IMG/VR virus record: IMGVR_UViG_3300032117_000040 | Coordinates: 1 to 51,757 of that record | Length of the DNA stretch: 51,757 nucleotides | DNA from: a virus | Taxonomy: Duplodnaviria; Caudoviricetes | Strand: one strand, 5' to 3' | In this document: positions 27,401 through 43,606 of the stretch, one piece after another | How the letters are laid out: every line of letters starts with the position of its first letter | How positions within the stretch are numbered: position 1 is the stretch's first letter | The notes under the pieces: model-generated | Databases searched by the model: none | Seen by the model: the letters and a program-made list of their open reading frames with translations, nothing else | Told to the model about the DNA's origin: nothing | Translations under genes and position numbers: made by a program

Positions 27401-29592
27401 ATGCTCAAGGTCAGCTGACAGCGGCTAGTAATACAACAGTGACACCAGCTGTGACTTCAATCACAGGATTGGGAACAGGCGTTGCAACTGCTCTTGCTTT
27501 AAATACTGGCAGTGTTGGCGCTTTTGTGGTCAATGGCGGCGCATTGGGTACACCTTCTTCGGGTACTTTGACCAATGCTACTGGATTGCCTTTGACAACT
27601 GGGGTGACAGGAGTTTTGGCTGTTGCCAATGGTGGAACTGGAGTCACGGCATCCAGCGGTGCAAATTCAGTTGTTTTGCGTGATGCCAATGCAAACATCA
27701 ATGCAAATTGTGTTTTTGAAGGTTTTACTTCACAAGCCGCAAGTGGGACAGCAATTGTTTTGACAGTTGCATCGGTTCAAAATTGGTTGATTACAGGTTC
27801 AGGCGGTCAAACAATTCAATTGCCTGATGCAACAACATTGCCAAATGGTGCATTGTTTACTTTTAACAATAACCAATCGTCAGGCACGATTGTTATTAAA
27901 AACAATTCGGGAACAACAGTTTGCACTACCCAATCGGGCGCATATATTCAAGTTGTTTTGATAAGCAATTCGATTGCGGCTGGCTCTTGGGATTACCATA
28001 ATGTTGCGCCATCAAATGCAAGTTGGTCTACCAATACACTTTCTTGGGCTGGTTCATATACTAATGGCACTTGGAATGGCAATGCGATTGGTGCGGCTTA
28101 TGGTGGAACTGGCGCAACATCATTGACGGGGTATGTGTATGGAAATGGAACAGGTGCAATGACTGCATCGACAACCATACCAACAACAGCATTATCAGGA
28201 ACTATTAGTAATAGTCAATTAGCTAACAGTACCATTTCGGGTGTTTCTCTTGGCTCAAACTTGAATGCCTTGACAATTGGCACTGGCTTGACAGGAACAA
28301 GTTACAACGGTTCTTCGGCTGTCACGATTGCTCTTGGCACTACAGCTGTCACAGCTGGCTCATATACAACAGCAAACATTACTGTTGATGCTTACGGTCG
28401 AATCACAGCCGCATCAAATGGCGCTGGTGGTGTGACTTCTTTCAACACTAGAACAGGCGCTGTAACGCTTACTTCTAGCGATGTCACTACTGCTTTGACT
28501 TATACGCCTGTCCAATCGGTCAGCGGCACGACAGGTCAAATTTCATCTACTGGTGGAACAACTCCAGTATTGGCTTTGTCAACAACGGCTGTGACCGCAG
28601 GTTCTTATACAGCAGCGAACATTACCGTTGATGCTTACGGTCGAATCACAGCCGCATCTAACGGTTCAGGTAGTTCGGGCACTGTGACAAGTGTTTCTGT
28701 TGTTTCCGCAAACGGTTTTGCTGGAACTGTTGCAACCGCAACAACTACACCCGCAATTACTTTAAGCACAAGTATCACTGGCGTTTTATACGGCAATGGA
28801 ACTGCGCTTTCTGCGGCTACTGGCTCTCAAATTGCAACAGCAATTGGAACAACAGCTGTAACAAACTCAACCAATACAACCAATATTTTGGGTGGTGCGG
28901 CTGGCTCTTTGGCATACAACACAGGTTCGGGAGCGACTTCATTCCTTGCTCTTGGCACTTCAGGTTATGTTCTAACAGCTGGCGCAAGCGCGCCTACTTA
29001 TGTTGCGCCAAGTACTTTAACTGTTGGTACAGCAACTAACGCTACCCAGTTGAATGGACAATCCGCAAGCTACTACACCAATGCTTCCAATCTTGCATCA
29101 GGAACTGTGCCAACTGCAAGACTTGGTTCAGGCACTGCTTCCAGTTCTACATATTTGCGTGGCGACCAAACCTATGCAACTCCTGTAACTTCAATTTCTG
29201 CTGGCACTGGCATTTCTGTTAGTGCATCCACTGGTGGTGTGACCATTACAAATAGTTCTCCTATGAGTGGCGGCGTTTGTCAATTGTGGGTTAACTTTAA
29301 TGGAACTATAAGCGGCACAAACTCACCAAGGGCTTCTTTAAATGTAAGTTCAGTTACTTACAATGGAACAGGTGATTACACGGTAAACTTTTCAATAACG
29401 CTTGCTGATACAAACTATGCGTATGTTACGGGCGTGAACAACGGGGTTGACGGTTCTGGCTCGGGATATGCTGGTATTCAAGGAAGCAGAAAAACAGCGC
29501 CAGCAACGACATCTTTGCGTTTGACAGGTTTTGGAACTGATACTGGTTCGGCGCAAAACCAACTCACTGTTAATGTGGCAATTTTTAGATAA
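24466..29592 (+). CDS. long tail fibre protein
   Basis: 1708 aa, Thr/Gly/Ser rich; two RVLVKNQ..NGIYV modules; repeated V.A.G..T.AS units; WVNFNG C-terminal domain. Confidence 0.85.
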   Translation: MTTLLFANQAQTALALPIASTDTTITVAAGTGSYFPAPSTNQAIKLTLVSTQSQLINEIVLCTNIADDVLTVQRGQEGTVAKAWAVGSYVINLMTAGTGNAFAQIYGLENGLYSASFSNMLTQTGQVISAPTQATDLVNKAYADSISQGTSKGECQCATTTAITLSGLQVIDGYTTLAGDRVLVKNQSNQADNGIYVASTTAWARSNDMSAWSQVPGASTFVQNGTLYTNTGWNVIAPESGTIGVTPIVWTQFSGMGTYTAGTGLTLTGTQFSITNTGVAAGSYGVAASVPTLVLNAQGQVTSASNTPISIAPSQINAPIPNSSLQNSSVTIGSTNLALGGTLTTLAGVNISGSTNTLTNIPNSALSNNSVTYNGVTVALGGSGTITAATVHPLTFGTGLNSGSFDGSASQTVSIANTAVTAGSYGSAGSVGTFTVNAQGQLTAASTVSIAISNTQVSGLGTMSTQNANSVAITGGTISGVSLTLDSLDNTPIGATTPSTGKFTTLSASGVVTLGNYTGYVYANGGSQISVQTTIPNSGLTYSSITINGNAVSLGGSTTVTADTPNALTFNNSGSGAASGSTFNGSSPVTISYNSVGASPLAGSTSLVTLGTVTTGTWNATTITPSNGGTGATTLTGYVYGNGTGTMTASTTIPTTALSGTITNAQLANSTISSVSLGSNLYSLTFGTHLTGSSYNGSSAVTIATDATNANTASTIVARDASGNFSAGTITANLTGTATQVSNSLTIGTGLTGTSYNGGSAVTIALGNVGTAGTYGSSYQVPVITTNAQGQITAVTNTTINAVTLTTGSISSAPVNTTDIANKLYVDTVAQGLAPKSPVLVATTANITLSGEQTIDGVTTSSSRVLVKNQSLSQNNGIYVSSSGAWTRSSDANTWSQLVSAFVFVEEGTTQADTGWTCTVDPGGTLGTTPVTWVQFSGAGTYLAGTGLTLTGNTFSITNTTVSSGSYGSATQVGTFTVNAQGQLTAASNTTVTPAVTSITGLGTGVATALALNTGSVGAFVVNGGALGTPSSGTLTNATGLPLTTGVTGVLAVANGGTGVTASSGANSVVLRDANANINANCVFEGFTSQAASGTAIVLTVASVQNWLITGSGGQTIQLPDATTLPNGALFTFNNNQSSGTIVIKNNSGTTVCTTQSGAYIQVVLISNSIAAGSWDYHNVAPSNASWSTNTLSWAGSYTNGTWNGNAIGAAYGGTGATSLTGYVYGNGTGAMTASTTIPTTALSGTISNSQLANSTISGVSLGSNLNALTIGTGLTGTSYNGSSAVTIALGTTAVTAGSYTTANITVDAYGRITAASNGAGGVTSFNTRTGAVTLTSSDVTTALTYTPVQSVSGTTGQISSTGGTTPVLALSTTAVTAGSYTAANITVDAYGRITAASNGSGSSGTVTSVSVVSANGFAGTVATATTTPAITLSTSITGVLYGNGTALSAATGSQIATAIGTTAVTNSTNTTNILGGAAGSLAYNTGSGATSFLALGTSGYVLTAGASAPTYVAPSTLTVGTATNATQLNGQSASYYTNASNLASGTVPTARLGSGTASSSTYLRGDQTYATPVTSISAGTGISVSASTGGVTITNSSPMSGGVCQLWVNFNGTISGTNSPRASLNVSSVTYNGTGDYTVNFSITLADTNYAYVTGVNNGVDGSGSGYAGIQGSRKTAPATTSLRLTGFGTDTGSAQNQLTVNVAIFR

Positions 29593-29601
29593 GGAAAAAT
29601 A

Positions 29602-30027
29602 ATGGCTCAAGTAATTGTTTTCACAAATGAAGATGGCGGTGTTTCTGTTTGTGTCCCTACAGGTGAAATTCATATTGATGATGTAAAAACAAAAGACACT
29701 CCTGACCATTCAATAATTGTTGATGATTCTATTTTGCCTATTTCAGACAATGATTTTTTTAATTCATGGGAATTAAATGGTTCAACAATATCTGTCAATA
29801 TTACAAAAGCTATTGCTCAACAACAATCAAAATTAAATTCTATTGCAAAAATAGAAGTAAATCATAGAGCAACAAATACAGGCGCTGGCATAGAAAATAA
29901 ACTTTCAGACACTGATTGGCTTTCTTTGTTGTCTACTGCAAGAACGACTATTGCTTCATGTACGACAACCCAACAATTGCGGGATGCTATTGCGCCTGTA
30001 GAAAGCGCAATTTCTGATAATGCGTGA
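29602..30027 (+). CDS. tail fibre assembly protein
   Basis: Follows the fibre; GGVSV..P and FFNSWE motifs. Confidence 0.6.
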   Translation: MAQVIVFTNEDGGVSVCVPTGEIHIDDVKTKDTPDHSIIVDDSILPISDNDFFNSWELNGSTISVNITKAIAQQQSKLNSIAKIEVNHRATNTGAGIENKLSDTDWLSLLSTARTTIASCTTTQQLRDAIAPVESAISDNA

Positions 30028-30078
30028 TACACTTTCAAAGGGAAGCCAACACCCTTTTGTTGGTAAAAATGGAGTTTA

Positions 30079-30330
30079 ATGATGCAACCTCAACAAATTT
30101 TTACTACGCAACCTGTCACTGTGCCTGCTGGCTTGGTCAAGGCAATTTTTGACTACATCGGTAGCCGCCCATCGGTCGAGACAGCGCTGTTGACCATTCA
30201 GTTCCAGCAAGTCGTCGGCGCTCAGATGCAAGCCATTGAAGATGCTGTTAAAGCTGCTGCACCAGCTGAAACACCAGTTGAAACACAAACCGAAGCCGCA
30301 CCATCTTCAAGCGAACCAGCACAGGCTTGA
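30079..30330 (+). CDS. hypothetical protein
   Basis: 83 aa; GGAG RBS; Pro/Ala/Glu-rich tail. Confidence 0.6.
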   Translation: MMQPQQIFTTQPVTVPAGLVKAIFDYIGSRPSVETALLTIQFQQVVGAQMQAIEDAVKAAAPAETPVETQTEAAPSSSEPAQA

Positions 30331-30333
30331 TAT

Positions 30334-30513
30334 ATGGCGACCATTGACCAAACTGATGCCCGATTAAGTACGCACGAAGAAGTTTGTGCGTTGCGCTATG
30401 AAGTCATCAACGCGCGTCTAAAGCGCATCGAACAAATTATGATCACCTCTGCGGGGCTTATGATTTGTTCGATGGCAGGTATAGTCTTTACATTCTTGTC
30501 GCATGTAAAGTGA
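30334..30513 (+). CDS. 59-aa coiled-coil plus C-terminal TM protein (XhlA/holin-like); cassette A gene 1
   Basis: Translated by hand: MATIDQTDARLSTHEEVCALRYEVINARLKRIEQIMITSAGLMICSMAGIVFTFLSHVK. Confidence 0.7.
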   Translation: MATIDQTDARLSTHEEVCALRYEVINARLKRIEQIMITSAGLMICSMAGIVFTFLSHVK

Positions 30514-30514
30514 T

Positions 30515-31093
30515 GTGGATCCGATAACCGCCTTTGCAGCATGTAAGGCCGCGTATTCGGGTATCCAAGGTGCCATCGGCATCTACCAAGATTTAAAGAA
30601 AACAGGCCATGATCTGTCTGGCATCACCCACGAAGTTGGGGGGATGCTTTCTTCGTTTTTCCAAGGCCAACAGCATCTAGAAGACGAGCACGAAAAACAA
30701 AAAGAGCAGGCCAAAAAGGACATGGCCGCTGGCAAACCGCGCAATGTCACGATGGAAGCTATCGATAACGTGATGCGCTTGCGAGAGATACGGCGCTACT
30801 ACGCCGAACTAGAGCACATGGTGCGCTATGAGCTGGGTATGCCAGACCTGTGGCGAGAAATTGTGGATGAGCGTCAACGCCTGATCAACGAGCGTGAGGC
30901 GGCAAAACGAGCCAAAGAACTGGCCGAGCAGCAAGCTGAGGCCAAAAGACAGTACCGTTTGGCACGAATTCGTCAAAATATTTCCTTGGTATTGGCTATC
31001 ATCCTAGGAGTTGTAACCATCGTAGGCACCGTATGCGCGATAGAACTGCTGATTCAGGAAGATATGACGCGACGATACGAAATCTACGGATAA
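30515..31093 (+). CDS. 'MDPIT' helical protein with C-terminal TM; cassette A gene 2
   Basis: GTG start; 192 aa; homologous to 47947-48669. Confidence 0.8.
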   Translation: MDPITAFAACKAAYSGIQGAIGIYQDLKKTGHDLSGITHEVGGMLSSFFQGQQHLEDEHEKQKEQAKKDMAAGKPRNVTMEAIDNVMRLREIRRYYAELEHMVRYELGMPDLWREIVDERQRLINEREAAKRAKELAEQQAEAKRQYRLARIRQNISLVLAIILGVVTIVGTVCAIELLIQEDMTRRYEIYG

Positions 31094-31236
31094 CGGCTAT
31101 CGCGCTGACGGTCGCGCTTGTGATGCTGATTGCGTCAGGCGCATATTGGTGGACAATGGAAGAACGTAAATTGGGCTTGCGCAAAATCAAAGAATTGAAA
31201 CAGGAGCTGGAAATATGCAAAAAAGCATCGCAATAG
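31033..31236 (+). CDS. TM plus coiled-coil protein overlapping gene 2 in the -1 frame; cassette A gene 3
   Basis: 67 aa; TM segment IALTVALVMLIASGAYWW; positional equivalent of 47798-48082. Confidence 0.65.
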   Translation: MRDRTADSGRYDATIRNLRITAIALTVALVMLIASGAYWWTMEERKLGLRKIKELKQELEICKKASQ

Positions 31237-31391
31237 CTTTGCTGATATTGTTATCAGGTTGCGAAGATCATTTTAGGTATCCATGCCAAGACCCAACCAA
31301 CTGGGACAAAAAAGAATGCAAGCCGCCAATCTGTTCAGTCACTGCAACTTGCCCTGAGCAGCTAGTAAAGATTAATAAGGACAAACCATGA
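31215..31391 (+). CDS. 58-aa Cys-rich lipoprotein; cassette A gene 4
   Basis: Translated by hand; lipobox LSGC; 21/37 ungapped identities to 47568-47801. Confidence 0.8.
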   Translation: MQKSIAIALLILLSGCEDHFRYPCQDPTNWDKKECKPPICSVTATCPEQLVKINKDKP

Positions 31392-31663
31392 AAAATTGGA
31401 CGCCTGAACAATGGGGTGATTTCTTTGAATCGCTCTCGCTGATGCTGTTGGAAGCGTCATTGTCTATCGCTTTCGTAGGGGGCATCTTCGCTATACTTTA
31501 TGGGCTGATCCATGTGTCGCAGCCAATGGAAGGCCAAAGTCTGAACGACAAAGCGATGTTTGCCATTCTGACGCCTTTGATGATTTTCTTGCCAACGATT
31601 ATTGACAAGATAATTGCCAAGAAAACAGAATCTCGTGTAAAAGAAAAGGGCGACAATGTTTAA
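31388..31663 (+). CDS. 2-TM membrane protein (holin candidate); cassette A gene 5
   Basis: Two hydrophobic segments; FAILYGLIHVSQP matches FALLYSVTFVTQP in cassette B. Confidence 0.7.
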   Translation: MKNWTPEQWGDFFESLSLMLLEASLSIAFVGGIFAILYGLIHVSQPMEGQSLNDKAMFAILTPLMIFLPTIIDKIIAKKTESRVKEKGDNV

Positions 31664-32090
31664 TCCCTATATGATTCTTGGCGCGCTGGCGCTGTGCGTG
31701 GCTGCTTTCTTTGAAGGTATCCACTATCAACGCTTGGAAGACGTGGCGCAGATTGCGCAACTGAATGAGCAAACCCGACAAGTCGAACAACAGCGCGTGC
31801 AAGAGGCCAACGATCACGCAATCAAATTGAGAGATGCAAATGCAAAAGCTGACCAACAAATTATTAAACTTAAGTCTGACGTTGCTTCTGGCGAGTTGCG
31901 CCTCTCGCTCCGTGCCGTACAACCCGCCAGCGATCCCGCCTCTGCCGCCAGAGCTGGGGTCGAAGCAAGATGCGACATTGACCCAACGGCTGCTCAATCT
32001 CTTGTCACCATCGCAGCAGACGGGGACAAAGCGATCCGACAGCTCAACGAATTGATTGATTTTTACAACCAAGTAAGGAGTGCTAAATGA
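31656..32090 (+). CDS. Rz: i-spanin
   Basis: N-terminal TM, coiled coil, GELRL and I..DGD.AI.QL motifs. Confidence 0.85.
   Translation: MFNPYMILGALALCVAAFFEGIHYQRLEDVAQIAQLNEQTRQVEQQRVQEANDHAIKLRDANAKADQQIIKLKSDVASGELRLSLRAVQPASDPASAARAGVEARCDIDPTAAQSLVTIAADGDKAIRQLNELIDFYNQVRSAK
31834..32055 (+). CDS. Rz1: o-spanin embedded in Rz
   Basis: +1 frame; lipobox LASC; Pro-rich; start at 31834 or 31840. Confidence 0.8.
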   Translation: MQMQKLTNKLLNLSLTLLLASCASRSVPYNPPAIPPLPPELGSKQDATLTQRLLNLLSPSQQTGTKRSDSSTN

Positions 32091-32536
32091 ATGAGAATTT
32101 GAATTACGACCAAGCTGGTCTTGACGTTACCGAGGACTCTGAGGGCTGTCGCCTGACGGCCTATCCTGATCCCGGTACAGGCGGCGATCCTTGGACTATC
32201 GGCTATGGACATACAGGTGCGGATGTGCACCCCGGCATGACCATTGATCACGCGCAAGCCGAAGAATTTTTGCGCCATGACGTGCGCAGCGCTGAAGCAG
32301 CTGTCAAACGTCTCGTCAAAGTCGAGCTGACTCAGCACCAATTTGACGCTTTGGTTGACTTTGCATTCAACTGCGGCGCTGGCAATTTGCAACACAGCAC
32401 TTTGTTGAAGCTGGTCAATGAAGGTGACTTTGCCACCGCGTCTACGCACTTTGGCGATTGGGTCAAAGGCGGCGGCCATGTGTTGCCCGGATTGGTGAAA
32501 CGCCGCCACGCCGAAACCGTGCTGTTTAATTCTTGA
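32087..32536 (+). CDS. endolysin, GH24 lysozyme
   Basis: EG.RL.AY.D...WTIGYGHT, QFDALV.F.FN.G and GLV.RR..E motifs. Confidence 0.95.
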   Translation: MNENLNYDQAGLDVTEDSEGCRLTAYPDPGTGGDPWTIGYGHTGADVHPGMTIDHAQAEEFLRHDVRSAEAAVKRLVKVELTQHQFDALVDFAFNCGAGNLQHSTLLKLVNEGDFATASTHFGDWVKGGGHVLPGLVKRRHAETVLFNS

Positions 32537-32550
32537 TACGTGGTAACGCG

Positions 32551-32769
32551 ATGACTGACATGTTCGACAAAGCTACGGAAACCGAAGAGCAATTTCGCAA
32601 TCAAGCTATAGACAATATCCGTAAGAATGCCGGACAGTCCAGACATTTAGGCCGTTGTCTCTGTTGCAATGCGCAAGTCGAGAACAACGGCCTATTTTGT
32701 AACATCGATTGCCGCGAAGACTATGAGCTAACGCAACGCATTCGACGTATCACTGGGCGCCCTACTTGA
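32551..32769 (+). CDS. TraR/DksA-like C4 zinc-finger protein
   Basis: N-terminal DxxDxA (DMFDKA); CxxC and CxxxC. Confidence 0.6.
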   Translation: MTDMFDKATETEEQFRNQAIDNIRKNAGQSRHLGRCLCCNAQVENNGLFCNIDCREDYELTQRIRRITGRPT

Positions 32770-32986
32770 TGCGCGCCACCTTTGCCTTTTTGAGCACAAG
32801 TTCGTACTGCTTTTTGGCTTCATCATCGAGCTTGCGCAAAGGCAAGTTCTGATAGTAGCTCCACTTGTCTTGGTACTGTTTGATCTCAGAAGGTGGCACC
32901 CAACCTAGCGCGCGCCATCTCTCTTGAATATCAGTGCCCGAAGGCGTCCAAATGTGCTCGTTAGCTGGGGATGATGGTAAAGCCAT
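32762..32986 (-). CDS. hypothetical protein
   Basis: 74 aa, coupled to the upstream HNH gene; WR.LGWVPPSE motif. Confidence 0.6.
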   Translation of the reverse strand: MALPSSPANEHIWTPSGTDIQERWRALGWVPPSEIKQYQDKWSYYQNLPLRKLDDEAKKQYELVLKKAKVARIK

Positions 32987-33534
32987 TATTTTTCCTTTCT
33001 TTTACGGGCAGCTCGTTGAGCCCTGTGTCTTGCATTATTGCTTTCTGTACAAAGAGTGCATCTGCACTTATGTGACTCGTATCCGGCTCTTGTGCCGTGA
33101 ACCCAAGTTCTCAATTTTCCACTTACCAAAGCCTTTTCTATCGGCATACGTTGTAAACGCTTAAATAAAGTATCAGTGCGCAATGTAAGCTTCTTAGCCC
33201 ATTGAGAAACAGTCAACGTCATACCGTTGTGAGTCAGTCTCACGTTACGTCGCTGATTATTCAATTGCTCTTCTTTTGTAGCCCATCGACAATTGTTAGG
33301 GCTATAACCTTTATTTGTGTCTAACCTATCCAAAGATTTGCCGTCAGGGACTTCACCCATATCAGCAAAAAAATTGTCGTAACTTTTCAACCATCTGGCG
33401 CATACAGTTATTCCTCTTCCGCCATAGTTAACCCACGCAATGTCTTTTTTATCTTGACAACGTCTGCACATGTTGCGCCAAGCAAAATAAGTCTTGGTGC
33501 CCGAAGGATTTTTCCATTTTGATCTATTGGTCAT
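32986..33534 (-). CDS. HNH-type homing endonuclease-like protein
   Basis: W..M..RC, YGGRGI.VC.RW and SLDR.D..GY.P.NCRWAT motifs; C-terminal HGT..CRC..C. Confidence 0.75.
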   Translation of the reverse strand: MTNRSKWKNPSGTKTYFAWRNMCRRCQDKKDIAWVNYGGRGITVCARWLKSYDNFFADMGEVPDGKSLDRLDTNKGYSPNNCRWATKEEQLNNQRRNVRLTHNGMTLTVSQWAKKLTLRTDTLFKRLQRMPIEKALVSGKLRTWVHGTRAGYESHKCRCTLCTESNNARHRAQRAARKRKEK

Positions 33535-33553
33535 AACCTATAATATCATAAAG

Positions 33554-33883
33554 CTACTTTGCGTCAACCAACTCACCATTCTTTACAATCTGACGAGTGA
33601 CTTTGACATCTGTAGCACCTTCAAAATTTGTCAATTTATTGACAACTAATTGAGAATAGCCGCAAACGTCTCGCCAGCTATCAATGAAACATGGGTCGCC
33701 ATTCAAGATACGAGCTATCTTGTGCGCAATCATCTCAAGTGCCTCGCAGTGCTCATACGGTAAGTCTTGCCAGCCCTCAGACTCGTACATGACGGCTTTT
33801 AGCTTTTGACTTATTTCAGCATGGGTAGCGAAATTGCCGTGGGTCTTTTGGCGTTGGGCTAGGGTTTGTGCAATCTTGCTCAT
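33554..33883 (-). CDS. DUF6378-like protein
   Basis: R..THG.F, KIARILNGDP and DSW.D..GY motifs. Confidence 0.7.
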   Translation of the reverse strand: MSKIAQTLAQRQKTHGNFATHAEISQKLKAVMYESEGWQDLPYEHCEALEMIAHKIARILNGDPCFIDSWRDVCGYSQLVVNKLTNFEGATDVKVTRQIVKNGELVDAK

Positions 33884-34074
33884 TTGTTCCTCGCTTCTTT
33901 TAAAAGTTCAATGCGTTCACGTGCTACGCGCAGGGTGTTATAGCGTTGGTGCAAACGTTCCAAGACAGATAGGCGTTTAGCGCCCACTCGTTCGGCGTTG
34001 AGCATCTCCAACACCTCATCTTCCGTCTTTGACGTCAGCACGCTGTTAAGTTCGCGCCAATTTAAGTTTTCCAA
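33880..34074 (-). CDS. hypothetical protein
   Basis: 64 aa; TTG start with GGAGG RBS; RLHQRY motif. Confidence 0.65.
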   Translation of the reverse strand: MENLNWRELNSVLTSKTEDEVLEMLNAERVGAKRLSVLERLHQRYNTLRVARERIELLKEARNK

Positions 34075-34210
34075 TTTTTTCCTCCAGTGCGGTTAATTTT
34101 TTTACAGTGCTGTTGTGGCTGCGCTGCGCTGAGTTGAGCGTCCTTGCGCGGATGCGCAATTCAGCTTTGAGTGCCTTAAGTTTTATCTCATAGGCTTTGA
34201 GTCGTGTCAT
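34046..34210 (-). CDS. 54-aa basic coiled-coil protein
   Basis: Translated by hand (MTRLKAYEIKLKALK...); ATGA-coupled to the helicase. Confidence 0.55.
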   Translation of the reverse strand: MTRLKAYEIKLKALKAELRIRARTLNSAQRSHNSTVKKLTALEEKIGKLKLART

Positions 34211-35565
34211 CTAAGTTCCTCCATTGCAATGTCACTAATGGCGCGTTTATCGTGGAGCGCCGCCCAAATCTTTTCATCTACTGTCTTGTTAGTGAGCAGA
34301 ATGTAGACCCACACCGCGAACCGTTGACCGCTGCGATGTAGTCTTCCCACAGTTTGTTCGTACAGCTCCAACGACCAAGGCAAGGACAAAAATACCATTC
34401 GGCACCCCCCATGCTGTAGATTGAGTCCGTGTCCTGCTGACTTAGGATGTATAAGTAGTAGCTCAACTCGCCCAGCGTTCCAACGTCCAATTGCGTCGTT
34501 GTCGTCGATGGTGACGGCATGGGAATAGCGCCGTAAAAGCTCGGCCAATTCTTCTTGATAGTTATAGACGACAATTGTGTTGGCTCTTTGGTTCTCTTCC
34601 AAAAGGTCTTCAAGAAGATCAAACCTGTGCGAACTAAACCAAACAGGTTTTTGAGTGACGATGAACTTACCGGGCTTTTCTGGGTTTGGTTTTTTGGTTG
34701 TCTCATAAACGAATCCACTGGCCATCTGTTGCAATTTGCCTGTCACCACCGCAGCGTTTGCAGCCACGGCGCGCGCGTCGGGAAATTCCACAACGAAATC
34801 AGCTTTCATTTTCTCGTAGTGTTGGCGCTCCATGTCGCAGCGCATCTCCACCGTATGACAGGGTGGCAGTTTGTCTTTGTAGTCGCCAGCATCGAGCACA
34901 TAGGTGGCAGGCTTGATCTTAGCCATGACGCCTTCCAGCGCGCCGGGACGGGGCGCCCAATCGCCGTAGTCGCGGTTGATACACACGAAGAATTGCTGAA
35001 GAAACGCGCCCTTGCTTCGGCCTAAGAGCTTGGTGTCAACGATTTTGCATTGACCGAACACATCTTCAAGGCCATTGCTGGTAAACGAGCCTGTCAGACC
35101 CCAGCGAATCTTGAAGTGATCGATGACTTTGTGCAACGCCTTAAAGCGTTTGCCTGACGCATTTTTCAATCGTGTGAGCTCGTCAAACACAATGCCGTCA
35201 AAACTAGATAAGTCTTGTTCGGCCAACCATTGCAAATTGTCGTAATTGATCACGACCACATGGGCGTCAGACGCCACCGCAGCTTGACGTTGTTTGGGCG
35301 TGCCTACGGCTAAAGCCATAGACAGTTTGGGTGCCCACTTGGGCAACTCCACAGGCCATACATCCGTACACACACGCTTTGGGGCTAAGACCAACCAACC
35401 GTTGACGTGGCCGCTGTTGATCATGTCTTGCATGGCCGTAAGCGTGATAGCAGTCTTGCCCGCGCCAACAGGCGCCAGCACCATTGCTCTGTCGTGCTCG
35501 AAGATGAAGTCGGCGGCTACCTCTTGGTAGTCACGCAATTTCAAACTGTTTTGCCCACTCATCAA
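34207..35565 (-). CDS. SNF2-family DNA helicase
   Basis: LRDYQ, GAGKT, FDE, LTGS, GHGLNLQ and GRLHRSGQ motifs; exact start uncertain. Confidence 0.9.
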   Translation of the reverse strand: MMSGQNSLKLRDYQEVAADFIFEHDRAMVLAPVGAGKTAITLTAMQDMINSGHVNGWLVLAPKRVCTDVWPVELPKWAPKLSMALAVGTPKQRQAAVASDAHVVVINYDNLQWLAEQDLSSFDGIVFDELTRLKNASGKRFKALHKVIDHFKIRWGLTGSFTSNGLEDVFGQCKIVDTKLLGRSKGAFLQQFFVCINRDYGDWAPRPGALEGVMAKIKPATYVLDAGDYKDKLPPCHTVEMRCDMERQHYEKMKADFVVEFPDARAVAANAAVVTGKLQQMASGFVYETTKKPNPEKPGKFIVTQKPVWFSSHRFDLLEDLLEENQRANTIVVYNYQEELAELLRRYSHAVTIDDNDAIGRWNAGRVELLLIHPKSAGHGLNLQHGGCRMVFLSLPWSLELYEQTVGRLHRSGQRFAVWVYILLTNKTVDEKIWAALHDKRAISDIAMEELR

Positions 35566-35815
35566 TTTGTTCCTTGGTATTCAACAGCGCATACTTCTGA
35601 TTCAACCCCAGCATGTTTCTTGCAAACAGCTTTTGTAATTCAGACAGCTTGCCGCCTTTGGGTCGTTTAAGTTCGACAAACCACGTATGGCCGTTTACCA
35701 TGCAGGCAACCTGATCAGACACGCCGCGCTGGTTGGGTGATTTAAATTTGTAGGACTTACCGCCTAACATGGCGACTTTCCAAACAAAATAATTTTCGAC
35801 TTCTTTTTCAATCAT
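35531..35815 (-). CDS. VRR-NUC nuclease
   Basis: EK.VE, GV.D and FVELKRP.G.LS.LQ motifs. Confidence 0.85.
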   Translation of the reverse strand: MIEKEVENYFVWKVAMLGGKSYKFKSPNQRGVSDQVACMVNGHTWFVELKRPKGGKLSELQKLFARNMLGLNQKYALLNTKEQIDEWAKQFEIA

Positions 35816-35819
35816 GTCA

Positions 35820-35856
35820 GAAAGTTTAGCACAAATAAATTTTTGTGCTATAGTGA
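35820..35856. promoter_or_regulatory. divergent promoter pair on a palindrome
   Basis: TAGCACAAA / TTTGTGCTA inverted repeat; extended -10 TGCTATAGT (+) and TGCTAAACT (-). Confidence 0.6.
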
Positions 35857-35887
35857 GGGTTCAAACATTCAAGTAAAGGACTCTCAA

Positions 35888-36133
35888 ATGAAATCAGCTC
35901 TTCTCATTGCCCTGCTCTCAGGGCTGTCTGGATGCGCAATGTTGGCCAACGCGCCCGTGCCGTTATCCAGCGTCAAAAAGATCGAAGGTATGTCCCGCGA
36001 TCAAGTCATCGAGGCATCCAAGCAATGCACCGATGCCAAACTCAAGCCTGTTGTGCGGTATGTGTTTCAGCCCAGCGATTTTGGGCGTATCCAAACGCCT
36101 ATCGACGTTCAATGCGAAACCTACAGATATTGA
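35888..36133 (+). CDS. small lipoprotein
   Basis: ATG at 35888 after AAGGA; signal peptide with LSGC lipobox. Confidence 0.7.
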   Translation: MKSALLIALLSGLSGCAMLANAPVPLSSVKKIEGMSRDQVIEASKQCTDAKLKPVVRYVFQPSDFGRIQTPIDVQCETYRY

Positions 36134-36141
36134 GGTGCAAC

Positions 36142-36378
36142 ATGCTTGACTTCATCAAAAACGTCTGCGCCAGCATTGTTTGTTTCTTTTTGTTTGTGGT
36201 TTATGTCACATCGGCAACGCCTGCACCGAAAGAACAACCGCGCGAAGAAATCATCATCGAAGAAAAACCGCCTGTCGATGAACACAAACAATTGTTTATG
36301 GAAGACTGCATGAGCATGGTGATGAACACCGAAAAAGATTGCAACCGTCTTTATGCTGAATTAACAGGGAAAAACTAA
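36142..36378 (+). CDS. small membrane-anchored protein
   Basis: GAGGTG RBS before ATG at 36142; N-terminal TM; Cys pair. Confidence 0.6.
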   Translation: MLDFIKNVCASIVCFFLFVVYVTSATPAPKEQPREEIIIEEKPPVDEHKQLFMEDCMSMVMNTEKDCNRLYAELTGKN

Positions 36379-37517
36379 TGGCCTCACTTCACTCATCCAT
36401 CGTCGGCGGTTCAACCGCTAAACGAGTCATCAACTGTCCCGGCTCTGTGGCGTTGTGCGCCAAGATGCCGCCCAAGCCCTCAAGCGAACATGCAGATCGT
36501 GGCACCCTGCTGCATGATGCCATCGCTGACATTTTGGGCAAGGACTTAGAACCACGTTCAGTCATTGGGCGCAAGCACGAAGGCATTGAGCTGACAGAAG
36601 AGCTTTTTGAAGAAAAACTTGTGCCTGCGCTCAAAGCCTTGGACGAGATCGATCCAGATTGCCAGATGGATTTGGTCGTTGAGAACTACGTGAACTTCGG
36701 CGACTTCATTCCCGGCGCGTTTGGTTCAGCTGACGTTATCGGCAAACTGGGTCGCAAGGCTGTCATTCTCGATTGGAAATTTGGCGACGGCGTTGTCGTT
36801 GAGGCTGAAGAAAACGACCAAGGTTTGTTCTACGCAGGCGCTGCCATGCGCACGCCAGCTGTGCAATGGGCGTTTGAAGACATCGATGAGGTAGAGATCA
36901 TCATCGTTCAACCGCCAGAAGTTAAGCGCTGGACAACAAGTGTAGAGCGCATCAAACAATTTGAGGTCGAATTGGCGCGCGCTGTGAAGCTGGCGCAAAC
37001 GCCTGATGCGCCCATAAAAGATGGATCGCACTGCCGTTGGTGCGCGGCCAAACCCACTTGCCCTTTGAAGACAGGCGAAGTCGAGCGCGTGCAAAAGATT
37101 GCCATTCAAGCAATCGACAAGACCAAGTTATCTGAGTACCTTGTTGTGGCAGACGCGCTAGAAGATTGGATCAAGGACGTGCGCGCGCTGGCGCATCAGA
37201 TCCTTGACTCAGGTGCACCTGTGCCCGGATTCAAGCTCGTTTCCAAACGCGCTACGCGCCAATGGAAGTTGAACAAAGATGAAACCATGCAAGCCTTGTT
37301 CAAGATGGAGTTAAACTTTGACGACATCTTCAGCAAACCAGAATTACTAAGCCCTGCTCAAGTTGAGAAGGTGCTTAAAAAGCGCAAGTTGGAGTTGCCA
37401 GACGATCTCGTCATGGCGATTTCATCAGGCACTACGATGGCGTCGGAGAGCGATCCCCGCCCCGCCGTATTGAAAATCGGACAGCAAATGACTGCTGCCC
37501 TCTCTAAACTTAACTAA
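36378..37517 (+). CDS. Cas4-like PD-(D/E)xK exonuclease (DUF2800-like)
   Basis: CPGS, GT..H, G.AD, DWKFG and CRWC.....CP motifs. Confidence 0.85.
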   Translation: MASLHSSIVGGSTAKRVINCPGSVALCAKMPPKPSSEHADRGTLLHDAIADILGKDLEPRSVIGRKHEGIELTEELFEEKLVPALKALDEIDPDCQMDLVVENYVNFGDFIPGAFGSADVIGKLGRKAVILDWKFGDGVVVEAEENDQGLFYAGAAMRTPAVQWAFEDIDEVEIIIVQPPEVKRWTTSVERIKQFEVELARAVKLAQTPDAPIKDGSHCRWCAAKPTCPLKTGEVERVQKIAIQAIDKTKLSEYLVVADALEDWIKDVRALAHQILDSGAPVPGFKLVSKRATRQWKLNKDETMQALFKMELNFDDIFSKPELLSPAQVEKVLKKRKLELPDDLVMAISSGTTMASESDPRPAVLKIGQQMTAALSKLN

Positions 37518-37526
37518 GGAAAAAAA

Positions 37527-38204
37527 ATGTCAAATCAACTCTCAGTTTTTAAATCTGCTGGTCTTCCCGCTGTTGCGAATGTTGCCAACGCTTTGCGTAC
37601 CATGAAAGTGGAAAACGCAGGTCACGTCATCATCAAAATGGACAAGACAGGCCACTGGGTTTTTGGCGCTGATCAAACCGAAATCGAATCTGATTCACAA
37701 TGGGCTATCAACCCATTCAGCTTCATCCACGGCTTTATTGCTTGGGGTGACGGCGACGTTTTGGGCGAGAAGATGGTTGCCATCAATGAGCCATTGCCTG
37801 ATCTGGATGAAGCACCTAAAGGCGCTAAAAAGGGTTGGGAATCACAAGTCGGTTTGTCGATGAAATGCACCAACGGCGAAGACGCTGGTATGGAAGCACG
37901 CTACACCACCACTTCTGTGGGCGGCAAACGCGCTGTTCAAACTTTGGGCGCAGCCATTGCTGATCAGATCGAAAAAGACCCAAGCAAGCCTGTGGCCATT
38001 GTGTCTTTGAAAAAGGATCACTACAGTCACAAGTCTTATGGCCGTATCTACACACCCGTGTTTGAAATCGTGGGCTGGATGGGTATGACCGAAGAAGCTG
38101 CGCCAGCTGCTGAGGCCGAAGGTGGTGATGCGCCTGAACCTGCAACTGAAGCTGAAGCACCTGCTGAGACTGCGCCAACACGCCGCCGTCGTGCTGCTGT
38201 TTAA
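37527..38204 (+). CDS. ssDNA-binding/annealing protein (putative)
   Basis: Between nuclease and polymerase; aromatic OB-like core; acidic tail. Confidence 0.6.
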   Translation: MSNQLSVFKSAGLPAVANVANALRTMKVENAGHVIIKMDKTGHWVFGADQTEIESDSQWAINPFSFIHGFIAWGDGDVLGEKMVAINEPLPDLDEAPKGAKKGWESQVGLSMKCTNGEDAGMEARYTTTSVGGKRAVQTLGAAIADQIEKDPSKPVAIVSLKKDHYSHKSYGRIYTPVFEIVGWMGMTEEAAPAAEAEGGDAPEPATEAEAPAETAPTRRRRAAV

Positions 38205-38208
38205 TTGA

Positions 38209-38290
38209 TCGGGGAAAGCTATTCAGGAATTCGGCTTGTATAAGCGTTAGCACCTGCCACTCTCCTGAATAGCCGTACCTTATTTTCCGA
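38209..38290 (+). ncRNA. structured intergenic RNA upstream of the polymerase
   Basis: 11-bp perfect inverted repeat GCTATTCAGGA/TCCTGAATAGC, an inner hairpin, and a GAAA/CGUA internal loop. Confidence 0.45.
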
Positions 38291-38302
38291 GGGCTCACAC
38301 TC

Positions 38303-40273
38303 ATGTCTGTTTTATGGCTTGACTTTGAAACACGAAGTCGTTGCAATCTACTCATCCACGGCGCATACAACTATGCCCAAGACCTTAGCACTGAGGTGCT
38401 TTGCATGTCCTACGCCTTTGACGACGAAGATGTCGTCACATGGGTGCCCGGCCAACCTTTTCCAAAAGAGGTCAAAGAATTCAAAGGTCAGATCCGCGCG
38501 CACAACGCTGCGTTCGAGCGACTGATCTTCTGGTATGTTTTACAAATCAATTTCAAGCTGGAGCAGTTCTATTGCACAGCTGCTCAAGCGCGCGCCAACT
38601 GCGCCCCCGGCTCACTGGATGACGTAGGGCGATTTATTGGCGCTGGGATGCGCAAAGACTTTCGCGGTTCGCAATTGATCCGGTTGCTGTCCATCCCCAA
38701 TCAAGATGGCGAGTTCAACGAAGACCCCAAGCTCATGCAAGAGATGGTTGATTATTGTGAACAAGACGTTCGTGCCATGCGCGAGAACAGTCAAATGCAG
38801 CGCCAGCTTACAGACTTGGAGCTGTTGGACTACCACATCAACGAGCGCATCAACGACCGTGGCGTGCGCGTGGATGTGGACTTGGCGCAAGCCGCCATGT
38901 ATTACGCCACCATCGAGCTCGAAGACATCGAAACGCTGGTGCAAGACATTACCGAAGGCGAGATCACCAGCGTGCGAAGCCCCAGAATGCGTCAATGGGT
39001 GTTGGAGCGCGTGGGCGATGAAGCCAAGAAAATGATGGAGAGCTACAAAGACGGCGAACGCAAATACTCCATTGATAAGTCAGTACGCGCTAACTTACTT
39101 GTGTTTGCGGATGAAAATCCCGATGAGATTCCACCTCACGTGGCTGACGTGATTCAATGCGCCGACGATCTGTGGGCGTCGTCTGTGGCCAAGTTCCGAC
39201 GCATGGCATCGTTGGCTGACTTTGAGGATCAGCGCGTGCGCGGAGCGTTCATGTTCAATGGCGGCAGCGCCACGGGTAGGGCTTCGAGCATGGGCTTACA
39301 GGTGCACAACTTCACGCGCAAATGCGCCAAAGAGCCTCAGCGCGTGCGTGACGTCATGGTGGCCAAGGGCAAAATCGTGCCGCAGTTTGGCAACCGTGTG
39401 ACCGATGTGCTCAAAGGCATGTTGCGTCCGGCGATGGTTCCGGCCAAGGGCAAAGTGTTTGTCGTGGCCGATTGGTCTGCCATTGAAGCGCGCATGAATC
39501 CTTGGTGCTCCAACCATGACCGCGCTGAAGAAGTGCTGAATGTGTTTCGCTCAGGTCGGGACATTTATATCCGCGAGGCCGCAGGTATTTTCCATTGCCC
39601 TGAAAGTGAGATCGAAGATGAAATTGAGCAAACTGGTGGTTCTGAACGCCGTCAAATTGGTAAGGTTGCTATTCTTAGTTGCGGGTATGGCGGTGGTGTT
39701 GGCGCTTTTACCGCTATGGGTCGTAATTACGGAATCATTCTTCCTGAGTCTGATTCTCGTCGCACTGTTGATGCGTGGCGCCGCGCGAATCCTTGGGCGG
39801 TGAGATTCTGGCAACAGCTGGAAGAAGCTTACACCAGAGCCATGCGTAATCCAAATGCTGAGTTCTCAGCAGGGCGAGTAACCTATATGTTTGATGGGGT
39901 TCACCTATGGTACGCATTGCCTTCTGGTCGAGTACTATGTTATCCCTTCGCACGTTTGGAAGATGATGCCGTTACCTATGCAAAAGCTGCTTGGAAGCCT
40001 GCCGCTGAAGCAAAAGAATGGCCACGTGCAAGATTGTGGAAAGGGCTTGCATGTGAAAATATCACACAAGCCGCAGCGAATGACATCCTGCGGCATTCTC
40101 TTCGCAACATCGATGACGTCGTGCTGCACGTGCACGATGAAATCGTTGTCGAAACCAATCAACCTGATGCTGTTGTCGCCGAAATGAAACGAGTGATGTG
40201 TACGCCGCCCGAATGGGCACAGGGCTTGCCATTGAACGCCGATATTAAGGTGATGGAGCGTTACGGCAAGTAA
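38303..40273 (+). CDS. family A DNA polymerase with 3'-5' exonuclease
   Basis: DFET, AHNAAFER and YC..DV; motif A DWSAIEAR; motif B R..GKVAIL..GYG; motif C VHDEI. Confidence 0.95.
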   Translation: MSVLWLDFETRSRCNLLIHGAYNYAQDLSTEVLCMSYAFDDEDVVTWVPGQPFPKEVKEFKGQIRAHNAAFERLIFWYVLQINFKLEQFYCTAAQARANCAPGSLDDVGRFIGAGMRKDFRGSQLIRLLSIPNQDGEFNEDPKLMQEMVDYCEQDVRAMRENSQMQRQLTDLELLDYHINERINDRGVRVDVDLAQAAMYYATIELEDIETLVQDITEGEITSVRSPRMRQWVLERVGDEAKKMMESYKDGERKYSIDKSVRANLLVFADENPDEIPPHVADVIQCADDLWASSVAKFRRMASLADFEDQRVRGAFMFNGGSATGRASSMGLQVHNFTRKCAKEPQRVRDVMVAKGKIVPQFGNRVTDVLKGMLRPAMVPAKGKVFVVADWSAIEARMNPWCSNHDRAEEVLNVFRSGRDIYIREAAGIFHCPESEIEDEIEQTGGSERRQIGKVAILSCGYGGGVGAFTAMGRNYGIILPESDSRRTVDAWRRANPWAVRFWQQLEEAYTRAMRNPNAEFSAGRVTYMFDGVHLWYALPSGRVLCYPFARLEDDAVTYAKAAWKPAAEAKEWPRARLWKGLACENITQAAANDILRHSLRNIDDVVLHVHDEIVVETNQPDAVVAEMKRVMCTPPEWAQGLPLNADIKVMERYGK

Positions 40274-40318
40274 AGAAAACGCCCGTTGGTAGACGGGCGC
40301 AAACAAAGGAGAAATGAC

Positions 40319-42637: not shown

Positions 42638-42657
42638 AAATATCTGTCAAAAACTTC

Positions 42658-42694
42658 TTGACAGCCTGAATCATTGTGCTATATGATTCAGGCT
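42658..42694 (+). promoter_or_regulatory. sigma70 promoter with overlapping operator-like palindrome
   Basis: TTGACA, 18 nt, TATGAT; 12-bp perfect inverted repeat AGCCTGAATCAT/ATGATTCAGGCT. Confidence 0.7.
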
Positions 42695-42721
42695 CAATCA
42701 ACTTCAGTAAAGGACATTGCA

Positions 42722-42958
42722 ATGAATCCAGCACAAGCGCGGTGGGATCCAAAGACCGATGAATGGGTGTTTGAGAATCTGACGCCTGCCGAACTCAAGG
42801 CAATTGCCGTACACATTGGCGAGAGCAAAGCTGACCGCATGATGCAAAAGCTCAACGCTCCTATGCCGATCGACCACATCAAAAAGCACCACGGAGACCG
42901 CTGGGAAAGTTTGGAGCAAGTGGTGCGTTGGGCAGAAGACTACCACCAAATCAAATAA
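42722..42958 (+). CDS. hypothetical protein
   Basis: ATG at 42722 after AAGGA; 78 aa. Confidence 0.6.
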   Translation: MNPAQARWDPKTDEWVFENLTPAELKAIAVHIGESKADRMMQKLNAPMPIDHIKKHHGDRWESLEQVVRWAEDYHQIK

Positions 42959-42978
42959 CTTTTTACAAAGGGCTCAAC

Positions 42979-43092
42979 ATGGACGACTTGATAAACATTT
43001 TTGCGCTTGTGGCTGTAATGGCGCTGGGCATTGGCGCTTTCGTAGGCGCGTTGTATTGGATGCTTGACCTGCACAAAGGGGGCGACAAATGA
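42979..43092 (+). CDS. 37-aa TM peptide
   Basis: Translated by hand: MDDLINIFALVAVMALGIGAFVGALYWMLDLHKGGDK; ATGA-coupled. Confidence 0.55.
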   Translation: MDDLINIFALVAVMALGIGAFVGALYWMLDLHKGGDK

Positions 43093-43316
43093 CTGATGAC
43101 GCGCTTTTGATGTTATTGGCTGACTATTACTATGTGCGGTGGTTGGCTACAGCGGCTTTGATAGACGCTAAAAAAGCTTTTGCAGAAGGCGACGAACTGC
43201 TCGGCTATGACAATTTGTTTGCTTGGGTTGAATATTTGGAAGATAGCAACTTTTTGTTTGGCATGTTGTTGGGCAAAGAAATGAAAGCAATGAATATTTT
43301 GAGAGGTTGGGTATGA
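43089..43316 (+). CDS. hypothetical protein (paralogue of 43965-44195)
   Basis: 75 aa; translationally coupled. Confidence 0.6.
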   Translation: MTDDALLMLLADYYYVRWLATAALIDAKKAFAEGDELLGYDNLFAWVEYLEDSNFLFGMLLGKEMKAMNILRGWV

Positions 43317-43519: not shown

Positions 43520-43606
43520 TATGTGGCCTTTCCCGCAATTCCCAAACAACAAAGACAACAACAAACCACCGAAGTTCAATCCTGACAACTACGAAGATGC
43601 ACCGCT

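Follow-up and report, generated by a model that had tools for sequence, protein, structure and literature searches.

The 51,757-bp virus record IMGVR_UViG_3300032117_000040 (hereafter the window, i.e., the whole stretch of DNA that was analysed; a linear IMG/VR-type record with a CheckV completeness of 100%, in which no terminal repeat and no tRNA was found) carries two versions of a block of five small genes (g1 to g5) that leads into an Rz/Rz1 spanin pair and an endolysin. Each copy (cassette A on the plus strand and cassette B on the minus strand) is best explained as one translationally coupled multigene lysis cassette that closes a phage late operon. The block is a conserved and selected arrangement that is built of sub-modules and is not indivisible: g2 and g3 form a core, g1 is optional, and g4 and g5 are a separable pair that always comes with Rz/Rz1. 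A more fitting description is a modular lysis cassette of seven to eight genes that includes two accessory sub-modules. As to function, we give about even chances to the reading in which g5 is the holin and g1 to g4 are holin partners or timing regulators, based on their position and architecture. The arrangement would then be a Gram-negative counterpart of both the XhlA/XhlB-type split holins and the RI/RIII-type regulators.

In cassette A, the plus-strand genes are closely packed without a break between a tail fibre gene and a DksA-like gene (Table 1), with neighbours from g1 through the endolysin being separated or overlapping by 1 to 61 nt. The DksA-like gene overlaps the endolysin stop by 4 nt and thus closes the same coupled series. 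Promoter- and terminator-like sites in the 29400–33200 region showed no excess over shuffled controls (3 vs. 4.5 expected and 4 vs. 5.1, respectively). A sequence-only reading of this DNA had proposed five small coupled genes ahead of Rz/Rz1 and the endolysin, and all five open reading frames (ORFs) were indeed found where it had placed them. The recurrence of the same five slots in the same order at 47174–48907 on the minus strand was confirmed as well, again followed by Rz/Rz1 and an endolysin, with a 246-aa tail-collar fibre gene preceding cassette B, which spans 48907 to 46160. Only the start of the copy-B g2 had to be corrected, from TTG at 48633 to ATT at 48669, yielding a 240-aa protein with the same DPIT N-terminus as in copy A.

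The proteins of both copies were compared via blastp, and subsequently via profiles built from related loci. The proposed homology of g2, g4, g5 and both spanins between the copies was borne out by blastp for g2 (E 6e-5, 21% over 155 aa), g4 (E 2e-17, 49% over 51 aa), g5 (E 7e-6, 24% over 70 aa), Rz (E 1e-16, 29% over 141 aa) and Rz1 (E 3e-9, 41% over 63 aa), while g1 and g3 left their counterpart in the other copy unmatched. The idea that the latter two are alike in architecture only held for g1, where profile comparison gave a probability below 1% (the same as for two control pairs), but not for g3, where both versions are remotely related (72.8% probability over 26 C-terminal columns). Judged from these comparisons, the B-type g1 appears to be a family distinct from the A-type g1 that occupies the same slot. 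The swap of a GH24 for a GH19 endolysin between the copies is real, with the former scoring 162.8 bits against PF00959 (cut-off 22.3) and the latter 44 bits against PF00182 (cut-off 25.5). Three A-type phage relatives (L365, L396 and L415) carry a GH19 endolysin where copy A of the window has GH24, with 49–52% identity to the copy-B endolysin, which confirms endolysin swapping within one phage lineage. Natural mosaics were also encountered, joining an A-like g2-g3 to a B-like g4-g5 on one contig (L005) or a B-like g1-g3 to a subsequent A-like Rz on three contigs (L086–L088), pointing to recombination inside the cassette.

Beyond the window, freshwater viral contigs often carry the block, and its recurrence in hundreds of independent ones indicates more than chance. 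A first set, seeded with g2, comprised 98 loci (two GenBank records plus the loci found with g2 of copy A or B), 70 of which reach the endolysin. All 70 have a further small protein with a transmembrane segment (TM) and an endolysin downstream, and in 69 of them g3 follows g2. The full set of slots, i.e., (g1)-g2-g3-g4-g5-Rz-Rz1 with GH19 or GH24, was present in 13 of these 70 loci, and (g1)-g2-g3 followed by a holin-like 153-aa protein and an M15 peptidase, with no spanins and no g4 or g5, in 49. The remaining arrangements were g2-g3-Rz-Rz1 with a 74-aa TM protein and M15 (5 loci), g1-g2-g3 with an 84-aa TM protein, Rz-Rz1 and M15 (2 loci), and g1-g2 with a two-TM protein, Rz-Rz1 and a peptidase (1 locus, in Limnohabitans phage DC31). 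In the 49 cassettes with the holin-like protein and M15 (L012–L082), no recognisable Rz/Rz1 or other lipobox ORF was seen nearby.

A second set came from an independent scan of IMG/VR seeded with g4, of which the best 80 of at least 591 stretches were taken. In this set, g2 lies upstream of g4 in 67/67 loci with enough flank, and g5, Rz and Rz1 lie downstream in 52/52 loci, with M15 (46) or GH19 (6) as endolysin. The g1 gene was present in 22/62 loci, and the g3 profiles matched in 54/76. When four loci with an unlabelled g3 slot were inspected, two turned out to hold an unmatched TM-plus-coil ORF and two had no ORF of at least 30 aa. Overall, three unrelated endolysin families (GH24, GH19 and peptidase M15) accompany the block, the virion modules differ too, and the cassette moves as a unit, lying between a tail fibre gene and an SU10-type adaptor gene in podovirus-like contigs. 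Synteny outside the window, one of the checks set for the sequence-only reading, was thereby found, and its view of the block as a selected unit stands insofar as the arrangement is conserved across unrelated endolysins and virion modules. It fails for an indivisible five-gene unit kept intact, since g1 is present in about a third of the g4-seeded loci and g2+g3 dispense with g4, g5 and spanins in most g2-seeded ones.

When the DNA of the block was compared with 50,697 phage records, only short endolysin matches appeared. At the protein level, the same records contained g1-g2 in one cultured phage, Limnohabitans phage DC31, and otherwise g2, g4 and g5 only in uncultured spring-water phages and one Actinomycetia phage record. 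Relatives of P0168 were sought in viral contigs and none was found. Among 185,579 species genomes, g2 had two matches only, on short contigs in metagenome-assembled genomes of Candidatus Methylopumilus (L116 and L117), which weakly hints that part of the g2 family has its hosts among methylotrophic Betaproteobacteria of fresh water. A literature search of texts other than supplementary files returned no description of the block.

The two cassettes probably do not reflect a duplication, the contig probably being an assembly chimera or a rare recombinant of two phages. Of 33 contigs of A-type relatives identified via the primase (70–75% identity), 32 reach a small terminase gene within 4.3–6.4 kb, and none of these has a B-type gene between primase and terminase. 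In the window, the whole B arm (46160–51757, truncated where the contig ends) falls into this interval, along with 3 kb of unrelated genes on the minus strand. B-type relatives, in turn, share only the 44.2–49.7 kb part of the window, and five B-type records contain a single g2 each. Public lake metagenome contigs from four runs were moreover aligned to positions 30001–50000 of the window. In one run, depth was 34 over 30001–43759 and 45191–46040, 55–59 over the shared 43.3–45.3 kb, and 12–16 over 46.4–50 kb, with a step from ~34 to ~14 near 46.0–46.4 kb. Another run covered 45191–50000 at a depth of 11–16 and had nothing over 30.7–43.3 kb, indicating that cassette B exists in genomes without cassette A. 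No contig in the four runs bridged 43759–44820 or linked both cassettes, although such a gap alone proves nothing. The join lies in a segment common to both phage types. The sequence-only reading was therefore right about two virion types, but the copies most likely stem from two different phages that became joined in the contig. The two cassettes would accordingly represent natural alleles of the block that come from two phages occurring together, and their comparison is not weakened by the join. An HNH endonuclease gene at 45232–45699 (phrog_99, E 3e-64) is missing at that position from the B-type relatives L084 and L091, which align on both flanks, and has homologues at other positions in some A-type relatives; it looks like a homing-endonuclease insertion.

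With regard to the lysis genes proper, the cassette contains, by profile matches, an endolysin (GH24 or GH19) and an embedded Rz/Rz1 spanin pair. Rz shows the N-terminal TM, periplasmic coiled coil and profile match expected of an i-spanin, and in both copies Rz1 lies out of frame inside Rz and has a lipobox, a Pro-rich mature part and PHROG spanin matches. The presence of spanins indicates Gram-negative hosts. Neither endolysin has an N-terminal hydrophobic segment of the signal-anchor-release (SAR) type, so each needs a hole-forming holin. For this role g5 is the putative candidate, being the only small two-TM protein in the cassette. Its TMs were placed by Kyte-Doolittle hydropathy at residues 12–30 and 58–76 in copy A and at 27–45 and 66–84 in copy B. 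The tail beyond TM2 contains 5 K/R and 3 D/E in 15 residues in copy A and is longer and Pro-rich in copy B. In both copies, and in 52/52 related loci, g5 is located directly upstream of Rz, so that it combines the features of class II-type holins, i.e., two TMs, a charged C-terminus and a position adjoining spanin or endolysin genes. Among 76 unique relatives, conservation peaks at the end of TM1 and in the inter-TM loop. Both copies match phrog_25359, a family of unknown function (E 2e-10 for A and 3.4e-14 for B), and no dual-start motif is visible in g5. In related cassettes without g4-g5, the holin slot is taken by other holin-like proteins, one of which matches the PHROG holin family phrog_3427 (3.5e-13).

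The AlphaFold2 (AF2) model of the copy-A g2 protein is all-helical (predicted local distance difference test score, pLDDT, 80.8), with helices at residues 3–30, 35–72, 78–106 and 110–191, i.e., three helices and then a long helix that continues into a C-terminal TM. This TM spans residues 149–167 of 192 in copy A and 210–228 of 240 in copy B by hydropathy, with K/R residues before it and a short acidic tail after it, and we read g2 as a tail-anchored protein that is mostly cytoplasmic. Foldseek against the PDB returned nothing at E ≤ 0.001 (best E-value 0.17), BFVD returned only uncharacterised proteins of uncultured phages, and the ESM Atlas placed g2, like g5, only in unnamed viral clusters. 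A wide VIA comparison retrieved syntaxin chains, i.e., closed syntaxin 1, syntaxin 6 and 12, and Sso2 (2xhe_B, 1lvf_A, 2dnx, 5m4y_A, 7q83_B and 1s94_B), at Z 8.9–10.1, although designed and other helical bundles reach Z 10.7 and values under about 13 are common for helical bundles. The overall plan of a syntaxin-like SNARE agrees with that of g2 (three-helix bundle, long helix, C-terminal anchor), and we treat this likeness as one of shape only. A complex prediction of g2 (residues 105–192) with g3 gave an ipSAE of 0.01 and a mark of 0.32, which weighs neither for nor against binding.

The g2 family counts 76 relatives in a 90%-clustered collection, 201 representative clusters (E ≤ 1e-3) among 1.84 billion proteins, and 272 confirmed stretches in IMG/VR. 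It has no member in Pfam, and 16/67 diverse members match phrog_32327 (unknown function). Within cassettes, g2 does not start with ATG. Its start codons were ATT 69 and GTG 8 in the set seeded with the copy-A g2, ATT 12 and GTG 10 in that seeded with the copy-B g2, and ATT 61, GTG 7 and ATC 2 in the g4-seeded set, giving GTG 25 and ATC 2 next to the ATT starts over 169 cassette-embedded loci. The conserved DPIT N-terminus begins right at the ATT or GTG codon, and in 163/164 loci the stop codon of an upstream ORF falls between −5 and +24 nt of the g2 start. In E. coli reporters (PMC3592434), an AUU start yields 6–8x less product than AUG or GUG, and an infC-type stop/AUU junction is served partly by reinitiation. 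The ATT or GTG start right after an upstream stop thus suggests that g2 is a low-dosage protein coupled to translation of the upstream gene, and its synthesis probably depends on termination-reinitiation. Low dosage and coupling are more readily expected of a regulator or nucleator than of a pore subunit needed in bulk, and with its ATT start g2 would be one of the rare phage lysis genes whose dosage is controlled at the start codon.

Outside the cassettes, two distant g2 clades were sampled, in which ATG is the start in 113/123 cases, i.e., 43/43 in clade 1 and 70 in clade 2 (next to TTG 6 and GTG 4). In some clade 1 loci, g2 is followed by a PHROG holin (phrog_3427, 3.5e-13) and an M15 peptidase, and in one locus the second gene downstream encodes a GTA_holin_3TM protein. 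Clade 2 proteins (about 260 aa; L198–L277) come from contigs as long as 364 kb, where g2 has a DnaB-like helicase and what appear to be tRNA arrays as neighbours; in 24 loci a Peptidase_S11 gene lies ~1.2 kb downstream.

Among the smaller proteins, the A-type g1 is tail-anchored as well: an N-terminal helix of 35 residues, which carries a conserved H-E-x-V-C-A-x-R-Y motif, precedes a single C-terminal TM (residues 37–55 of 59 in copy A). In copy B the C-terminal segment is only weakly hydrophobic on the Kyte-Doolittle scale. Copy A of g1 has 43 unique homologues among related loci and a weak match to phrog_38642 (unknown function, E 2.5e-4), and a Pfam scan gave no family. An XhlA-type architecture, i.e., an N-terminal helix, a single C-terminal TM and a two-TM holin candidate nearby, is thus seen in g1 of copy A and in g2 of both copies. 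The g3 protein has one TM and a charged helical C-tail of 25–30 residues, with a Trp and a Cys that are invariant in 29 aligned sequences (W39 and C62 in copy A). Its orientation in the membrane is ambiguous.

The g4 product has a lipobox, followed by four invariant Cys past the lipid Cys in a strongly conserved mature domain of ~42 aa. The Cys pattern and lipobox are invariant across 33 aligned sequences, acidic residues occupy +2/+3 after the lipid Cys, and copy B has the same Cys pattern plus two extra C-terminal Cys. Its AF2 model is irregular (pLDDT 71.9) and has no PDB match at E ≤ 10. Copy A weakly matches phrog_1119 ‘Cor superinfection exclusion protein’ (E 0.0088, residues 1–42 including the signal peptide), and copy B matches no PHROG family. 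In related loci, an A-like g4 pairs with an A-like g5 and a B-like g4 with a B-like g5. As far as the profile searches tell, none of the four families g1 to g4 is in Pfam or in a named PHROG, so that they appear to be uncharacterised.

Taken together, these features suggest a mechanism in which g5, with its short N-terminus, highly conserved periplasmic loop and charged C-terminus, would open the inner membrane. The g1 and g2 proteins would be tail-anchored in the inner membrane with their helical domains in the cytoplasm, and together with the single-TM g3 would target the holin or the membrane from the cytoplasmic side, either as co-holins (like XhlA and SPP1 gp24.1) or as timing regulators (like T4 RIII and phiKZ gp143). 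The g2 protein would deliberately be made in small amounts via termination-reinitiation. In the periplasm, g4 would be a lipid-anchored, disulfide-knotted peptide that works specifically with g5, probably acting on the conserved g5 loop as an RI-like modulator, and g2+g3 and g4+g5 are two separable sub-modules.

Several observations weigh against this assignment. The sampled loci belong to related freshwater phages, so that shared ancestry inflates the synteny counts. The g5 protein belongs to no described holin family, with no Pfam match and no named Atlas cluster, and none of its 28 homologues is named as a holin. A six-frame search of the window gave 0 matches to the XhlA family (PF10779) at E ≤ 10, and Pfam and PHROG scans of g1 gave no XhlA match either. 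The company of at least five different holin-slot proteins argues against g2+g3 being a holin-specific antiholin. The topology of g3 is ambiguous in that its short variants in the 29-sequence alignment have an uncharged N-terminus and a K/R-rich C-tail, and this tail would sit in the cytoplasm. Finally, distant clade 2 has no adjacent lysis gene, and such relatives away from lysis genes indicate that the g2 family is not strictly tied to lysis.

The latter relatives also favour a different, though in our estimation unlikely, explanation, in which g1 to g4 are not lysis proteins but envelope-modifying or superinfection-exclusion genes at the late operon end. Accordingly, g4 might be a Cor/Llp-type receptor-masking lipoprotein and g1 to g3 might be Sie/Imm-like blockers of DNA entry, leaving only g5, Rz/Rz1 and the endolysin to lyse the cell. 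The cor and llp genes sit beside receptor-binding genes, and the block directly follows tail-fibre genes in both copies, with g4 of copy A showing the above-mentioned weak phrog_1119 match. However, this match is absent from copy B, and g4 shows 49% identity between phages whose fibres are unrelated (1708 aa vs. 246 aa). Moreover, g4 co-varies with g5 and not with the fibre, with g5-Rz-Rz1 following it wherever this could be scored, and the block is translationally coupled inside a late lysis cluster where promoter-like signal does not exceed background. Podovirus-like contigs, finally, keep g1-g3 with a holin-like gene and an endolysin between the fibre and SU10-type adaptor genes.

A bolder elaboration of the holin-regulator reading, which we rate as somewhat less likely again, is an undescribed trans-envelope lysis clock that freshwater phages of Gram-negative hosts would commonly carry, and in which the ATT-gated g2 together with g1 and g3 licenses g5, and g4 holds the g5 loop until triggering. 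The syntaxin-shaped, tail-anchored g2, with a dosage that its ATT start and termination-reinitiation would make sensitive to the state of the host initiation machinery, would then nucleate or license g5 from the cytoplasmic face together with g1 and g3. If true, such a clock would play the part of T4 lysis inhibition with a set of four new protein families.

It is also conceivable, but improbable in our view, that the roles are reversed and that g2+g3 (with g1) form a new two- or three-component holin, the g5-slot proteins being accessory or antiholin-like. The constancy of g2+g3 next to a downstream TM protein that changes family at least five times speaks for this, and XhlA of PBSX, which has a single TM, is reported to be indispensable for lysis (PMC6834076). 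Nevertheless, g2 starts at ATT or GTG, which sits badly with the many copies that a pore former requires; there is no locus in which g2+g3 are the sole small TM proteins before the endolysin, and related jumbo-type contigs have g2 alone, with no g3 or lysin nearby.

A second, miniature spanin-like or spanin-assisting pair of g3 (inner-membrane, with a periplasmic coil and C-terminal Cys) and g4 (a Cys-rich outer-membrane lipoprotein) is very improbable, for although gene order and architecture recall an i-spanin followed by an o-spanin, an invariant Cys lies near the g3 C-terminus and g4 occurs only in cassettes with Rz/Rz1, g3 lacks g4 in 56/70 complete loci, its tail is only ~25–30 residues long and may lie in the cytoplasm by the positive-inside rule, the acidic residues at +2/+3 of g4 are of the kind that favours inner-membrane retention of lipoproteins in E. 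coli, g4 is not Pro-rich as Rz1 is, and neither g3 nor g4 matches a spanin PHROG. The remainder of the probability goes to some other envelope function for the block.

Should g1 to g4 be holin partners or regulators of g5, as we favour, then split holins and periplasmic or cytoplasmic regulators would be widespread among environmental phages of Gram-negative bacteria as well. The burst size and fitness of a phage are set by when it lyses its host, and to our knowledge mechanistic insight into lysis comes almost entirely from a few coliphages and Gram-positive phages. With the present arrangement, four uncharacterised membrane-protein families join the holin-endolysin-spanin scheme, on the scale of 272 stretches through g2 and at least 591 through g4 in freshwater viral contigs. 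With ~2.2 kb, the block is compact and could be tested by expressing subsets.

Table 1. Positions of the genes of cassettes A and B and of their flanking genes in the window.
Feature	Coordinates	Strand	Evidence or remark
Tail fibre gene, 1708 aa	24466-29592	+	Upstream of cassette A
g1 copy A, 59 aa	30334-30513	+	ORF
g2 copy A, 192 aa, GTG start 1 nt past g1 stop	30515-31093	+	ORF
g3 copy A, 67 aa, 61-nt overlap with g2	31033-31236	+	ORF
g4 copy A, 58 aa, lipoprotein precursor	31215-31391	+	ORF, lipobox LLSGC
g5 copy A, 91 aa, two hydrophobic segments, holin candidate	31388-31663	+	ORF
Rz-type i-spanin copy A, 144 aa	31656-32090	+	PF03245 E 4.7e-7; phrog_1327 E 3e-12
Rz1-type o-spanin copy A, 73 aa, inside Rz, lipobox LLASC, Pro-rich	31834-32055	+	phrog_3198 E 3e-5
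GH24 endolysin copy A, 149 aa	32087-32536	+	PF00959 E 5.8e-48
DksA-like zinc-finger gene	32533-32769	+	phrog_54 E 5e-12
g1 copy B, 76 aa, weakly hydrophobic Gly/Ala-rich C-terminal segment	48677-48907	-	phrog_5225 E 0.003
g2 copy B, 240 aa, tail-anchored helical, ATT start 7 nt past g1 stop	47947-48669	-	Profile match E 2.2e-58
g3 copy B, 94 aa, single TM, helical C-tail	47798-48082	-	ORF
g4 copy B, 77 aa, lipoprotein precursor, lipobox ILIGC	47568-47801	-	ORF
g5 copy B, 150 aa, two TM, Pro-rich C-terminal extension, holin candidate	47174-47626	-	phrog_25359 E 3.4e-14
Rz-type i-spanin copy B	46743-47177	-	phrog_1327 E 5.4e-16
Rz1-type o-spanin copy B, inside Rz (start 47017 chosen within ORF 46769-47125)	46769-47017	-	phrog_4306 E 2e-5 (long ORF 46769-47125)
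GH19 endolysin copy B	46160-46756	-	PF00182 E 3e-11; phrog_181 E 1.8e-73

Elsewhere in the window, a 524-aa gene at 49647–51221, beside the tail fibre of the B arm, matches phrog_21712 ‘major head protein’ (E 6e-25) and has no Pfam match, and the sole match to phrog_1193 ‘hemolysin’ in the window is the tape-measure gene.

Among known systems, the split holins of PBSX (XhlA/XhlB) and SPP1 (gp24.1/gp26) come close, in that there, too, a protein with one C-terminal TM lies beside a two-TM holin and an endolysin, and LysF1b/LysF1a of a mycobacteriophage and LysA2b/LysA2a of D29 are further such pairs. In this comparison g1, and by extension g2, resemble XhlA and gp24.1, and g5 resembles the two-TM partner. 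XhlA and gp24.1 have one C-terminal TM and XhlB and gp26 two, and each is harmless alone while the pair is lethal (PMC6316719). Likewise, the D29 preprint describes a two-TM and a one-TM protein that are harmless alone and lethal together, and an accessory lipoprotein that affects lysis. The cassettes in the window differ from the split holins in their Gram-negative hosts, in having two tail-anchored proteins plus g3, and in the three genes between g1 and g5.

The lysis inhibition set of T4 consists of the holin T, the periplasmic antiholin RI and the cytoplasmic RIII. In phiKZ, a fifth gene of the cassette (gp143) encodes a cytoplasmic, holin-binding timing regulator, according to PMC12894885. 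With T4 and phiKZ the block shares the logic of a holin flanked by cytoplasmic and periplasmic regulators, and the loose analogy to T/RI/RIII drawn in the sequence-only reading holds for this logic only, since no link in sequence or fold was found: g1 to g4 gave no PHROG or Pfam match to RI or RIII, and the fold searches with g2 showed no likeness to them. Furthermore, g5 has two TMs and thereby differs from a class III holin, in which the periplasmic domain is large; g2 is anchored in the membrane; g4 is a lipoprotein, where RI is SAR-anchored; and g2+g3 are not tied to one holin family. A search for a match to an already characterised holin/antiholin set likewise found none.

The releasin of phage Mu has an N-terminal TM anchor and works with SAR endolysins. 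In the present cassettes anchoring is C-terminal, neither endolysin starts with a hydrophobic segment, and Pfam scans gave no match to DUF2730, the likeness being limited to a membrane-tethered cytoplasmic protein in a lysis cluster. Cor and the Llp protein of T5 are small disulfide-containing phage lipoproteins whose genes lie close to tail-fibre or receptor-binding genes, whereas g4 is strictly linked to g5-Rz-Rz1 (52/52) and not to fibre type, and has no structural match in the PDB. For Mu, PMC9239132 describes gp25 ‘releasin’ (DUF2730) as a membrane-tethered cytoplasmic lysis protein.

With the lambda-type S-R-Rz/Rz1 cluster, the cassettes have in common a holin candidate, a soluble endolysin and an embedded Rz/Rz1 in one late cluster, but they differ by four extra upstream membrane-protein or lipoprotein genes, by the order holin-spanins-endolysin, and by the lack of a visible dual-start motif in g5. 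In sequence, none of the precedent systems (split holins, D29, phiKZ and T4) is a relative of the block. The block would belong to a known kind, that of multigene lysis cassettes which include accessory regulators or co-holins, with four accessory families that are uncharacterised. What is new here is the start codon of g2, which is ATT in 142/169 cassette loci and never ATG.

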